Assembly: GCA_963743305.1 (NCBI GenBank)
Contig: CAVUPH010000001.1
Span: 1 to 44,977, forward strand
Source: an uncultured delta proteobacterium
GTDB lineage: Bacteria; Desulfobacterota; RBG-13-43-22
Length of the DNA stretch: 44,977 bases
Direction of reading: 5' to 3'
This document shows positions 15,200 through 26,198 of this stretch, in pieces; position 1 is the first letter of the stretch; every line of letters starts with the position of its first letter. Both the position numbers and the translations under genes were made by a program. The notes beneath the pieces are model-generated. The model saw nothing but the letters and a program-made list of their open reading frames with translations. It was not told the DNA's origin and made no database searches.

Positions 15200-15455
15200 G
15201 GCGGAAATTGATTGAGATGCGGGGTAGATTTGCGTGTACGAGTACGTGTACGAGTAAGGAACCCCATAATGATCAAACGGTTTGATCATGCGCGTCTGAG
15301 CGGATGCTTGTTGCCTGGACAGCAAAGCCTAATAGAAGAATAGTGGGGCAGAAGTGGTGACGCCCTACTCGTACACTTACTCGTACACGCCAATCTCTCT
15401 TAGGGGTTTGGCAACGGTGTCCGGCCTGTAGCGATTCAGCATCCCCAAATCCCGC
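15200..15455 (+). mobile_element. hairpin-armed four-helix-bundle element, copy A (internally deleted)
   Basis: Arms GCGTGTACGAGTACGTGTACGAGTA (15232-15256) and its inverse (15366-15390); encloses mini-ORF 15269-15343 MIKRFDHARL...QQSLIEE*. Confidence 0.75.
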
Positions 15456-15577
15456 GGTCTCTAATCTCCCCCTCGGCTCCCTTTCCATTGACCCCTCCCC
15501 CTGATTCCACTATAATCCCCAAATTGGAGTGCGCTCCGGCCTGAGCCTCTTCGGCGGAGTCGCCGACGATAGCGCAT

Positions 15578-15619
15578 TTCGTCATTCGAAATTCAGTGTT
15601 CGATATTCGATATTCGTTT
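15578..15619. repeat. heptamer tandem repeat (TTCGATA-like) x6
   Basis: ttcgtca ttcgaaa ttcagtg ttcgata ttcgata ttcgttt. Confidence 0.8.
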
Positions 15620-15646
15620 TTGTTTTCATCCATAGGAAAGCCCATT

Positions 15647-24152: not shown

Positions 24153-24872
24153 TCAATACTCAGACCAGAGAGTTCCAGGGTCGGAGACGGGCAATTCAGC
24201 TACACCTCTATCTCTTCCATCCCGCACATTGACCACCCGGTCCACCACCGGGGATTCGTACACCAGAGGATCGTGGCTCGACAGGAGCAAGGTTTTCCCC
24301 TCGGCTTTCAGTTCCTGAAGGATTTCCATCAAGGCCTGGGAATTCGCGGTATCCAAATGGGCGGTGGGTTCGTCGGCAATGATGATCGAGGGATTGTTGA
24401 TCAAAGCCCGGGCAATTGTCACGCGCTGGGCCTCCCCCCCGGAGAGCCATTGGACCTTGGAATAAGCCTTGGAGGCGACATGTAATAGTTCTAACAGGCG
24501 CAGCCCCCTTTTCTTCAAGGCGGCATGGGCCTCTCCCAGGGGATAGGCGGGCAACAAAGCATTTTCCAGGGCGGTGATGCCCTGGATAAGATTGGGCTGC
24601 TGGAAGATAAAGCCAAAGGTTTTTCTGCGGATCTCCGTGAGGAAGCGCTCCGGAAGGCTGGTAATCTCGCGGTCCTGAAGCCAGATCCGGCCCTGGGTCG
24701 GCCGGGTCATGCAGCCGATCAGGCTCAACAGGGTCGTCTTGCCCGACCCGCTGGGACCTTTCAAGACGGTGGCCTGCTGATCTTCCAGGGACAAGCTGAC
24801 CCCTCGAATCGCGGCAAATTCATTGGGCTTACCGGCATTAAAAACTTTTTTGATTTCAACCAGTCTGATCAT
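24153..24872 (-). CDS. ABC transporter ATP-binding protein (LolD/MacB-like)
   Basis: GPSGSGKT, LSGGEAQR, IIADEPT, SSHD. Confidence 0.93.
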   Translation of the reverse strand: MIRLVEIKKVFNAGKPNEFAAIRGVSLSLEDQQATVLKGPSGSGKTTLLSLIGCMTRPTQGRIWLQDREITSLPERFLTEIRRKTFGFIFQQPNLIQGITALENALLPAYPLGEAHAALKKRGLRLLELLHVASKAYSKVQWLSGGEAQRVTIARALINNPSIIIADEPTAHLDTANSQALMEILQELKAEGKTLLLSSHDPLVYESPVVDRVVNVRDGRDRGVAELPVSDPGTLWSEY

Positions 24873-26002
24873 CGCATCACCGAATCCGGGTCAACAATAG
24901 CCGCCCTCCAGGAGGGGATAATCGTCGCCACCGTGTAGGGAACGACGACCAGAAAAAACAACGCCGCCACTTGCGCCCCATCGATATAAGGGGTGATCGT
25001 AAATCGAGGATACAGGACGGACCATCCTTTCAGCACCGGCTCAAAAAGGATGGCGGAGGCCAGGAACACATGGGCATAGGCCAAAAGGACCCCCGGGAGG
25101 AAGGCGGAGAGCGATATCGCCATCCCTTCCCAGAACTTCATCAGGAGCACGTCCGAAGTCTCCCAGCCGATCGCTTTGAGAATCCCGATCTCCTTCCGTT
25201 CCTCCATACTCGGGCCCGAGGCTTTATCCCAGGCAAAAATAATAAAAGCCAGCACGCTCCCGAAAAGGATGGTGATCAGAAGGCCACCGCGCCAACTGAA
25301 AACGGCGTCGTAGGTCCGTAGGATTTCCCCCCGCAGGATTTGCCGGGTATCGGGAAAGGTCTCGGCCACTTTTAAGGCAATGGTCGAAAGCTCCCTGGGA
25401 TTTTTGACCCGCACCGCCAGATCGGTCACGTAATCCCCGGTGAGCCCGAAAAGCCCCCGGAAGTCCTCTTCGGTGATCAGGACCAGGTCGGAAGAAACCA
25501 GCCCTACCTCCGACGGGAAGATCTTGTTTATTTTCAACTCCCGGATGACCCCGGCGGATGTCCTGAATTCGAGTTCATCCCCTTTCGAGGCCAGCCTCAG
25601 CCTGGCGACGCCTTCGCCGACGGCGATGCTTCCGGGAACCACCTCCGGGTCCTCCGAAACCAGGAGGGTGTAATTAGCGCCTACGATCGGATCGTAGTAG
25701 TATCCCCACAACCGCCCCCGGGCCGATTGGACCCCCCGGATTTTTCTGACTTTTTCCAGGTAGCTCAAGGGGATCAATTCGTGCCGGCCCGCGACCAACT
25801 TCTGAACGATCATTTCCGGCGCTTCCGCGAGCAGGATCGAGGCTTCTTTCTGGATGGAGCGCGTAAAAAAGACCACCGAAGCCAGCAGAAAAACGATCAG
25901 GGTGTAGACCAGGACCAGGGCCGCGTTCTTTCTTTTCCTTCGAAGCAGCGCCGCCAGGGAAAAGTCGAGGATATTCTTCTGCCGTTCAATCCAGGTGCGC
26001 AT
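24869..26002 (-). CDS. FtsX/LolE-like ABC permease
   Basis: N-terminal TM, periplasmic loop, ERKEIGILKAIGW, IIPSWRAAIVDP. Confidence 0.9.
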   Translation of the reverse strand: MRTWIERQKNILDFSLAALLRRKRKNAALVLVYTLIVFLLASVVFFTRSIQKEASILLAEAPEMIVQKLVAGRHELIPLSYLEKVRKIRGVQSARGRLWGYYYDPIVGANYTLLVSEDPEVVPGSIAVGEGVARLRLASKGDELEFRTSAGVIRELKINKIFPSEVGLVSSDLVLITEEDFRGLFGLTGDYVTDLAVRVKNPRELSTIALKVAETFPDTRQILRGEILRTYDAVFSWRGGLLITILFGSVLAFIIFAWDKASGPSMEERKEIGILKAIGWETSDVLLMKFWEGMAISLSAFLPGVLLAYAHVFLASAILFEPVLKGWSVLYPRFTITPYIDGAQVAALFFLVVVPYTVATIIPSWRAAIVDPDSVMR

Positions 26003-26041
26003 TTAACTAAGATTTCCTTCCTGAGATCCATAGGCGTTAAC

Positions 26042-26198
26042 AGAGATAGGCGTGTACGAGTACGTGTACGAGTGCGCGTCGCCTATTTCGTCCCAGCCGG
26101 GTCACGAATTCAATCGCCTCGTCAACCAGGCTTCCTCACTTCCGTACTCGCACGTACTCGTACACGCAAATCTTCCCTGCTTCTTAATCAAGTCCGCC
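26042..26198 (-). mobile_element. hairpin-armed element, copy D (short internal remnant)
   Basis: Arms 26050-26074 and 26145-26167; interior 26091-26120 encodes EAIEFVTRLG, homologous to GAIEFVAWLE of the copy B gene. Confidence 0.72.

Follow-up and report, generated by a model that had tools for sequence, protein, structure and literature searches.

Can an element with the architecture of the 23S rRNA intervening sequences (IVSs) live between ordinary protein-coding genes, and what becomes of it there? The question is raised by a 44,977-nucleotide stretch of DNA from an uncultured delta proteobacterium (contig CAVUPH010000001.1; the whole stretch is called the window), in which four units, A to D, are bounded by inverted arms built on one short repeat, and one of them, B, encloses a gene for a four-helix-bundle protein of the PF05635 family. 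The four units almost certainly form one family of cassettes, composed of a 5' arm, a two-domain PF05635 protein of about 253 amino acids and a 3' arm; they are decayed in this genome, they lie downstream of a co-oriented gene, and they are one case of a wider rule. The explanation that we favour, with a probability of roughly 0.55, is that they are rRNA-IVS-type cassettes outside rRNA, with derivatives resembling the miniature transposable elements that end in inverted repeats (MITEs), and that they would be processed in read-through RNA. To our knowledge, the 23S-rRNA-IVS/TIGR02436 proteins are very common and their structures have been solved, and they have no known function; the rRNA IVSs in which they were first noticed have stayed a curiosity.

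In what follows, G000 is this assembly, G001, G002 and G003 are sister species of the genus, C5, C7, C20, C24, C25 and C34 are contigs or sites of G000, and L numbers designate fetched loci.

Four units built on one repeat

The units and their parts are listed below.

15199..15457, plus strand: unit A, a gene-less deletion derivative (5' flank 15199-15225; 5' arm 15226-15259; interior 15260-15362; 3' arm 15363-15396; 3' module to 15457)
23073..23821, minus strand: unit B, the most complete copy in G000 (5' arm 23788-23821; open reading frame from 23778 down to 23059; 3' arm 23142-23164; 3' module 23073-23158)
23059..23778, minus strand: open reading frame (ORF) of B, 239 amino acids, with a complete PF05635 four-helix bundle as domain 1 (residues 8-115)
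23826..24143, minus strand: unit C, gene-less, immediately upstream of B as read on this strand (5' arm 24109-24143; 3' arm 23899-23926; 3' module 23826-23905)
26038..26198, minus strand: unit D, gene-less, just upstream of an FtsX-like permease gene (3' arm 26043-26076; interior 26077-26150; 5' arm 26151-26177; 5' flank to 26198)

The 12-mer CGTGTACGAGTA, with up to two mismatches allowed, occurs 20 times in the window (mean of 100 shuffles 0.93, largest 4), and 19 of the 20 matches fall inside units A to D. A repeat finder pairs the inverted arms of A (15226-15259 with 15363-15396, 34 nt, 91% complementary), C (23899-23926 with 24109-24136, 28 nt, 96%) and D (26044-26066 with 26151-26173, 23 nt, 91%). 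Unit B has a full 5' arm and a 3' arm shortened to one 12-mer, and its 5' arm is complementary to the 3' arm of C at 28 of 28 positions. The long stem made by terminal inverted repeats around an ORF, which characterizes elements of the IVS type, is found here, with stems of 23-34 nt that are 91-96% complementary. In its complete form, an arm reads AGAT, four variable bases, GTGTACGAGTA, any base, GTGTACGAGTA and CGG; that is, each arm consists of two GTGTACGAGTA 11-mers with one free base between them, closed by AGAT or ATCT, and the two arms of an element are inverted with respect to each other. The arm ends of the units are asymmetric, AGATT(T/C)GCGTG versus AGAGA..GGCGTG. Outside the arms, the upstream (5') sides of A and D are homologous over 41 nt with 90% identity, and 3' of the arm, A, B and C have a common module of 75-85 nt, detected with nhmmer, which in G000 always stands beside an arm. 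All of this, namely the four units armed with a 12-mer, the unequal arm ends and the homology beyond the arms both upstream and downstream, had been proposed in an earlier note made from the sequence of the window alone, and each point was recovered. The note had also remarked that no transposase lies inside any unit, which is correct; yet a Y1 transposase gene (20044-20500, minus strand) does lie in the span that it described (15200-26198), unlinked to the arms.

The 3' module spans 15384-15457, 23073-23158 and 23826-23905, and its distal box, CA(A/G)ATTC(T/C)GC.GAAGA, is also present in copies from Lentisphaerae and Victivallales. An outer inverted repeat beyond the arms was considered as a general feature and dropped: among 16 elements tested it beats shuffles only in L070, L076 and L067, at L067 it is a mere extension of the stem, and none rises above shuffles in the five G000 units tested.

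The intact element and the decay of its copies

The ORF of B matches PF05635 over two stretches (E 5e-25, 88.2 bits, cut-off 33.8) and TIGR02436 (E 1.8e-21, 76.4 bits, cut-off 24); by sequence, the solved chain closest to its domain 1 is 2GSC (E 8.9e-6). Relatives of the B protein were collected by fetching, with their flanks, 80 of 512 matching genome loci, the closest of which are 61-69% identical. The same arms surround an intact ORF of 249-256 amino acids with two tandem PF05635 domains in 11 genome loci and 5 metagenome contigs, with the arms of the intact loci 796 nt apart. The metagenome-assembled genomes (MAGs) that carry the 11 intact loci are labelled Victivallales, Lentisphaerales, Lentisphaerae, Kiritimatiellia, Neomarinimicrobiota, Rhodospirillales, Verrucomicrobia and, in one case, 'uncultured bacterium'. 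The intact relative L071 scores 88.6 bits against PF05635, again over two stretches, and an AlphaFold model of this protein (not of B) predicts two four-helix bundles joined by a disordered linker (predicted local distance difference test, pLDDT, 86; predicted template-modelling score, pTM, 0.87). With Foldseek, this model is matched to 2GSC (XCC0516) at a target-normalised TM-score of 0.83-0.90 and to 2RLD (BT_0352) at 0.81. The intact ORF is under purifying selection in these other lineages, with dN/dS of 0.19-0.30 in the five least diverged pairs and a median pN/pS of 0.31 over 55 pairs.

When all units of G000 are aligned to a full-length copy, they differ from it by nested deletions, which identifies them all as deletion derivatives of one two-domain element. 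In B, a Shine-Dalgarno-like GGGAG stands immediately after the 5' arm. An internal deletion truncates domain 2 after GKFSAKDRCR, from where the frame continues through the element's own 3' arm and module; the ORF is probably a pseudogene or a one-domain remnant. What survives inside A is the region of the start codon (ATGATCAAACGGTTTGATCAT), the FDH codons and the final ~20 codons of domain 2. The interior of C has a remnant of the start codon and the final ~35 codons of domain 2, and it contains a direct duplication of 33 nt (23944-23976 and 23989-24021); D retains about 35 nt of the coding region for the N-terminus of domain 1. C and the copies on contigs C20 and C25 all retain the start-codon region and the last ~25-35 codons (EGKGLLADAVRMLVAWQRSLTEE and the stop), and C shares its deletion junction region with the C25 copy. 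In G002, the copy at the contig-C7 site is cut where GCCTAC of the gene meets CCTAC of the arm. As judged from these alignments, every copy in G000 is a MITE-like deletion derivative and none is intact, B having lost half of domain 2. The four-helix-bundle gene of the earlier note, which lies in B, belongs to the family named there, with the amendment that it is a truncated two-domain gene reading through its own 3' arm; A, C and D are not designs of their own but derivatives keeping pieces of that gene, and the link that the note drew between the arms and four-helix-bundle genes extends to the 11 loci where the same arms surround intact genes.

The same relation between long and short forms is seen in metagenomes. 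Among 80 contigs with the arm 23-mer, taken from at least 120 matching stretches, 44 paired units were found, with loops of 16-56 nt (30 units), 91-216 nt (8), 796 nt (5) and 1038 nt (1); 10 of the 80 loci match the protein in tblastn. Tandem mini-hairpins come after several of the full-length copies, an arrangement likened to that of C preceding B. The cassettes have one trait of MITEs, being short, non-coding, multi-copy and deletion-derived sequences with terminal inverted repeats, and do not show the other, a target-site duplication and a transposase-coding parent: no duplication is seen at the junctions compared, and the parent encodes a four-helix-bundle protein only. Tandem arrays of at least three near-identical mini-hairpins with the same arms, spaced by ~108-150 nt, stand beside full-length elements in L072, L073, L074 and L217, and a triple unit at G000:C24:10161-10655 resembles them.

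Distribution and descent

The G000 assembly (4.9 Mb, 43 contigs, 90% complete) contains 44 matches to the 12-mer with at most one mismatch, in 16 clusters (3 matches for the reversed control). These make up about 12 units on 8 contigs, that is, some 8 beyond the four in the window. The arm 24-mer (at most three mismatches) is present in all three other species of the genus, with 4, 16 and 9 matches, and absent from all 37 further genomes searched in that family or phylum; the dispersed, arm-defined family announced by the earlier note is therefore real, and confined to the genus among these relatives. Ten of 14 arm loci in the sister species have orthologous flanks in G000, showing that many units are old. 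Indeed, unit A occupies the same site in G002, and in G001 the site has a deleted left arm; unit D is likewise at the same site in G002. The presence of units at orthologous sites in independently assembled genomes of the genus makes it unlikely that the copies are assembly artefacts, a possibility that the note had raised against itself. Carriage on plasmids or phages was considered and rejected: tblastn with the intact 253-residue protein finds no match in either collection.

Other arm families with four-helix-bundle genes

The pattern extends well beyond the arms of the window. Of the fetched loci, 75 had sufficient flank, and in 51 of these the gene lies between inverted arms whose score exceeds that of the best of 10 shuffles by 5 or more. 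With search windows placed by the true stop codon, the count is 58 (46 of the 61 single-domain loci and 12 of the 14 of two-domain length). The best period is 6 in all 49 ungapped stems, with a median of 5.7 units, and the 6-nt units include TCNTAA, CTCTTG, TCGTTC and TGCTCA. Related single-domain genes between such 6-nt repeat arms occur in MAGs of Planctomycetota, Verrucomicrobiota, Lentisphaerota and Kiritimatiellota. G000 itself has 10 PF05635 matches, 5 of them over the cut-off; its other PF05635 genes are flanked by inverted 7-nt arrays (ATATCCA, AAATCCG, GATGAAx), and gene-less hairpins of these heptamer families are scattered over the genome (17 strict matches). At least five repeat motifs are found side by side in the one genome, and each has a four-helix-bundle gene of its own. 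The arm-flanked four-helix-bundle gene is a general pattern, of which the GTGTACGAGTA family is one case.

The arms of single-domain genes are purely 6-periodic (0.76 at lag 6, 0.77 at lag 12; none of 46 favours 12). Those of two-domain genes have two alternating half-sites, and lag 12 clearly exceeds lag 6 in 3 of 12. Where the protein has two domains, the 6-nt periodicity of the arms is weaker and the 12-nt periodicity stronger, which is weak support for the cassette's own protein as the putative reader of the arms.

One intact single-domain four-helix-bundle gene of G000 (L021, G000:C40:47996-51298, at 1489-1845) has imperfect GATTTTx-type arms and lies between a DNA methylase fragment (PF01555) and a RhuM-family gene (PF13310), in a restriction-modification-like gene row. 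The PADLOC defence models give no match for three four-helix-bundle proteins.

Turnover at shared intergenic sites

Within the window, the gene before A has an IPT/TIG domain, the one before C and B encodes an ABC ATPase, and D stands ahead of the FtsX-like permease gene. Elsewhere, the recurrent sites are gap-pgk (5 loci), the position after a MiaB/RimO-like gene (5) and that after DUF1552 (9). Within the genus, what occupies a given site may change. The B/C site holds a gene-less hairpin with AAATCCG-type arms in G002 and a single arm only in G001. At the C20 site, the GTGTACGAGTA unit of G000 corresponds to an AAATCCG/AAATTCG hairpin in G001, G002 and G003. At the C5 site, a GATGAAC-type hairpin is present in G001, in G003 and, together with half a unit, in G002, and G000 has the unit alone; at the contig-C7 site, a unit lies inside a hairpin with heptamer arms. 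By these alignments, the same intergenic site may carry one arm family in one species of the genus and a different one in another.

Proposed processing in read-through transcripts

The model that we favour runs as follows. The cassette would have no promoter of its own and would be transcribed by read-through from the upstream gene; in the read-through RNA, the arms would pair into a stem of 25-35 bp, which RNase III would cut, as it does in the 23S rRNA IVS of Coxiella and in Correia elements, so that the cassette would act like an intervening sequence inside the transcript of an operon. The repeats of the arms would serve as recognition sites with sequence specificity, the cassette's own protein being the most likely partner, and the element would spread by a DNA-level route requiring only arms and flanks in cis. 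The part of this model that concerns read-through transcription and cutting by RNase III is drawn from analogy, and we put it at slightly less than an even chance.

Three observations were counted for a role as an intervening sequence in mRNA: the co-orientation of the cassettes with the upstream gene, the lack of any promoter-like site in front of B, and the fact that G000 encodes RNase III (rnc). Ten of 12 units in G000, gene-less ones included, are co-oriented with the upstream gene, the two exceptions being solo arms, and the rule holds for all three G000 units with convergent genes on either side. Over the fetched loci, the upstream neighbour is co-oriented in 58 of 67 and the downstream neighbour in 49 of 74, counts that were obtained from crude ORF calls and on loci that are related rather than independent. 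Folded as RNA, units A, C and D have z-scores of -5.28, -5.77 and -3.98 relative to shuffles.

Several results weigh against this reading, beginning with the limits just given on the orientation counts. Rfam gives no match at the gathering score over the whole window, and none even at E <= 1 over 15000-26400. The 24 copies of the 3' module, of which two (C5 of G000 and L059) are probably spurious matches to the end of a neighbouring gene, show no consensus RNA pairs with RNAalifold. The 333 mismatches between arms comprise 54 of G-U type (on the sense strand), 55 of A-C type and 224 transversions; with no excess of G-U over A-C, nothing indicates that pairing has been selected at the RNA level. 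Watson-Crick pairing of the single base that separates the 11-mers is seen in 22 of 56 units, where 17.0 are expected; 885 of 10000 shuffles attain the count of 22 (p ~0.09). Clean empty sites and target-site duplications, which the earlier note had looked to for support, were sought at the A, B/C, C20, C5, C7, C24 and C34 sites and none was found, each 'empty' site being held by another hairpin family or a partial copy; with neither a filled-versus-empty pair nor a target-site duplication, mobility rests on indirect evidence. Most G000 sites are common with G002, which fits old, mostly vertical copies. Transfer is suggested by the fact that the host ABC ATPase has its best named matches in Desulfobacterota MAGs and that the cassettes nearest to the G000 family are in MAGs of the Planctomycetes-Verrucomicrobia-Chlamydiae (PVC) group: gene and arms may have been transferred together, within the limits of the phylum labels, which are those of the MAG records and may include binning errors. 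Finally, a look-up of sequencing runs returned nine DNA-type runs, each with a small share of the sampled words, and no RNA run.

The arm statistics bear on what the arms are. An arm fits the partner from its own element better than those of other elements (mean score 24.3 versus 13.6), the element's own 3' arm being the best partner in 13 of 52 cases (1.06 expected by chance). Nucleotide identity is higher in the arm block (0.86) than in the coding sequence (0.72), where pS is 0.58. By repeat phase, arm mismatches reach 30% and 20% in the variable phases versus 3-4% in the conserved ones, a measure that is partly circular because the variable phases also vary within an arm. In the repeat core it is the sequence itself that is under constraint, and the free positions show no selection for pairing. 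This sequence-level conservation, taken with the lack of wobble bias and covariation, was interpreted as meaning that the arms look like inverted arrays of a recognition motif rather than stems kept for their structure alone, even though a long stem will still form from them in any transcript or single strand. Because at least five motifs each have their own four-helix-bundle gene, the most likely reader of the arms is the cassette's own protein, a putative assignment in which co-variation of protein and arm is not separable from shared descent. The interpretation put forward in the earlier note therefore holds in part: the dispersed, arm-defined cassette stands, its stems fold well (z -4.0 to -5.8) and do not covary at variable positions, and the action of the cassette as an intervening sequence in mRNA is plausible by analogy, with evidence both ways.

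Alternative explanations

A first alternative is a DNA-level mobile element. Its arms would be terminal inverted repeats carrying binding-site arrays for the element's own four-helix-bundle protein, which would bring the ends together for host enzymes to cut and join, and the RNA hairpin would be a by-product. The conservation of the arm sequence above that of the coding sequence, the missing wobble bias and covariation at free arm positions, the confinement of mismatches to unconstrained repeat phases and the stronger 12-nt, weaker 6-nt periodicity of arms around two-domain proteins all point this way; so do the five or more motifs, each with its own gene, which argue against a single host factor, and the MITE pattern of the 80 metagenome loci, where 38 of 44 paired units have short loops and 6 long ones. 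We nevertheless consider it rather unlikely. The element encodes no nuclease or recombinase, no target-site duplication is seen at the junctions compared, and the strong orientation bias towards the upstream gene, even of gene-less copies, is not expected of it; we know of no PF05635 four-helix-bundle protein that acts in transposition. The units could instead be domesticated intergenic hairpins, inherited vertically and serving as 3'-end stabilisers, insulators or terminators in the manner of repetitive extragenic palindromic (REP) sequences and bacterial interspersed mosaic elements (BIMEs), the gene being dispensable cargo. Their place right after the stop codons of co-oriented genes, and also between convergent genes, would be understandable, as would the sites common to G000 and G002, the decay of all genes of the family in G000 while the arms persist, and the constant occupation of the same intergenic sites by some hairpin family. 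Purifying selection on the ORF in other lineages speaks against this, as does the fact that the arm sequence, and not pairing alone, is kept across MAGs labelled as different phyla. Nor do the units look like terminators: no T-run follows the stems, and a terminator scan is empty at A and at B to D. We regard domestication as improbable.

Two explanations invoke other enzymes. Y1 transposases recognise DNA hairpins, and those of the genome, of the IS200/RAYT type (RAYT, REP-associated tyrosine transposase), might move the units in trans as hairpins of single-stranded DNA, as REPIN-like repeats (REPINs, hairpins of paired REP sequences). G000 has eight PF01797 matches, one of them in the window. 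The IS200-like gene there is flanked by hairpins of its own that are unrelated to the arms, no arm cluster of the 16 is at any of the eight Y1 loci, and in 11 of 11 intact loci the arms travel with the four-helix-bundle gene rather than with a Y1 gene, all of which makes this route very improbable indeed. Retro-mobility by a reverse transcriptase of the type found in diversity-generating retroelements (DGRs) was rejected, as G000 (90% complete) has no RVT_1 match.

A broader proposal can be added to the favoured reading of a cassette processed in read-through RNA, and is made tentatively, as one that has the odds against it. PF05635 proteins might in general read the short repeats of their own arms, the cassette being a self-recognising selfish element that controls its own processing or copying, and the 23S rRNA IVSs would then be copies that have landed in rRNA. 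One bundle domain could correspond to each 5-6-nt unit, with single-domain rings on about five hexamers and two-domain proteins on the bipartite GTGTA-C-GAGTA 11-mer, an arrangement to which we likewise give less than even odds. Were the proposal true, a family that has lacked an explanation since the early 1990s would gain its first function, and there would be a clue as to how Avd, the four-helix-bundle protein of DGRs, chooses its RNA.

Other features of the window

The Y1 transposase gene of the IS200 type at 20044-20500 (minus strand) matches PF01797 with E 3e-38 in the genome scan and 7.5e-26 for its 119-residue ORF; it lies in an AT-rich stretch, and the hairpins that flank it are unrelated to the GTGTACGAGTA arms. 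Just downstream of A and upstream of a GAF-PAS gene, a near-consensus sigma-70-like promoter (15488-15516, plus strand; TTGACC, 17 nt, TATAAT; 11 of 12 positions) is kept in G001 and G002. A short TTCGATA heptamer array follows at ~15598-15621, with a longer array at the orthologous place in G001 (containing TTCGATGTT); it resembles a solo arm from a different hairpin family. At 29854-29889 and 44790-44849 there are direct repeats based on TGTCATCCTGAG, another dispersed short repeat. The stretches 36.7-39.0 kb and 39.6-41.8 kb are long paralogues of 72-95% identity, probably tandem paralogous genes.

Comparison with known systems

Full-text literature searches retrieved no account of cassettes of this kind outside rRNA; subscription journals and supplementary files lay beyond their scope, and an earlier mention is possible. 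The findings place the architecture of an rRNA IVS between ordinary genes, inside operons such as gap-pgk, where it spawns gene-less derivatives and where its arm sequence is kept across MAGs labelled as different phyla. They give a family of hypothetical proteins a putative nucleic-acid partner, which may offer a testable handle on the function of PF05635, and they account for a class of intergenic repeats (TCNTAA, GTGTACGAGTA and AAATCCG arrays) that break metagenome assemblies and yield spurious ORFs.

The closest counterparts are the 23S rRNA IVSs of Coxiella burnetii, Leptospira and Xanthomonas, as presented in excerpts of PMC4990558. In both systems, a PF05635/S23p ORF lies in the loop, sense to the host transcript, between terminal inverted repeats; short tandem repeats occupy the 5' arm before the start codon, a ribosome-binding site stands at the edge of the stem, and the ORF is often decaying while the RNA element persists. 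According to the same excerpts, the Coxiella IVS has a terminal stem of 28 bp, cut by RNase III in mid-stem, and three tandem GACAGAT heptamers ahead of a decaying S23p ORF, and XCC0516 forms a homopentameric ring (citing Lin et al. 2006). The cassettes differ in lying between protein-coding genes rather than in helix 25 or 45 of 23S rRNA, in their two-domain ORF, their many copies, gene-less derivatives and tandem mini-hairpins, and in their extra 3' module; moreover, cutting by RNase III is established for the Coxiella IVS, and extends to the cassettes by analogy only. The 23S rRNA of G000 has no IVS of its own, its two large-subunit (LSU) rRNA genes showing no insert of more than 38 nt relative to each other. 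These genes (C8:4985-8008 and C16:114353-117269) are only 76% identical, which indicates that one probably comes from a contaminating organism.

With the bacterial MITEs that are cut by RNase III, namely the Correia repeat enclosed elements (CREE) of Neisseria and the enterobacterial repetitive intergenic consensus (ERIC), the cassettes share a small size, multiple intergenic copies, terminal inverted repeats that form hairpins in read-through transcripts, an origin by deletion from a longer parent, and nested or clustered copies; the cutting of Correia terminal inverted repeats by RNase III is reported in the portion of PMC10969869 that was available. They depart from them in that the parent encodes a four-helix-bundle protein rather than a transposase, in having no target-site duplication that was found, and in arms that are arrays of a short motif. 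REP/BIME and REPIN-RAYT systems are likewise extragenic palindromes downstream of genes, often in tandem clusters and with possible roles in the stability of mRNA 3' ends; the cassettes differ in having no RAYT linkage, longer stems (25-35 bp) and an associated gene of the PF05635 family.

The comparison with Avd of DGRs sets aside most of the retroelement, since G000 has no RVT_1 and no template or variable repeats, and the cassette gene stands alone between its inverted arms. What remains common is a homologous four-helix-bundle fold, as stated in an extract of PMC10053308, together with the fact that Avd works with structured RNA. In this, in the origin of the family within hairpin-bounded rRNA IVSs and in the family's lack of an assigned function, the background given in the earlier note agrees with PMC4990558 and PMC10053308, so far as the extracts of both extend.

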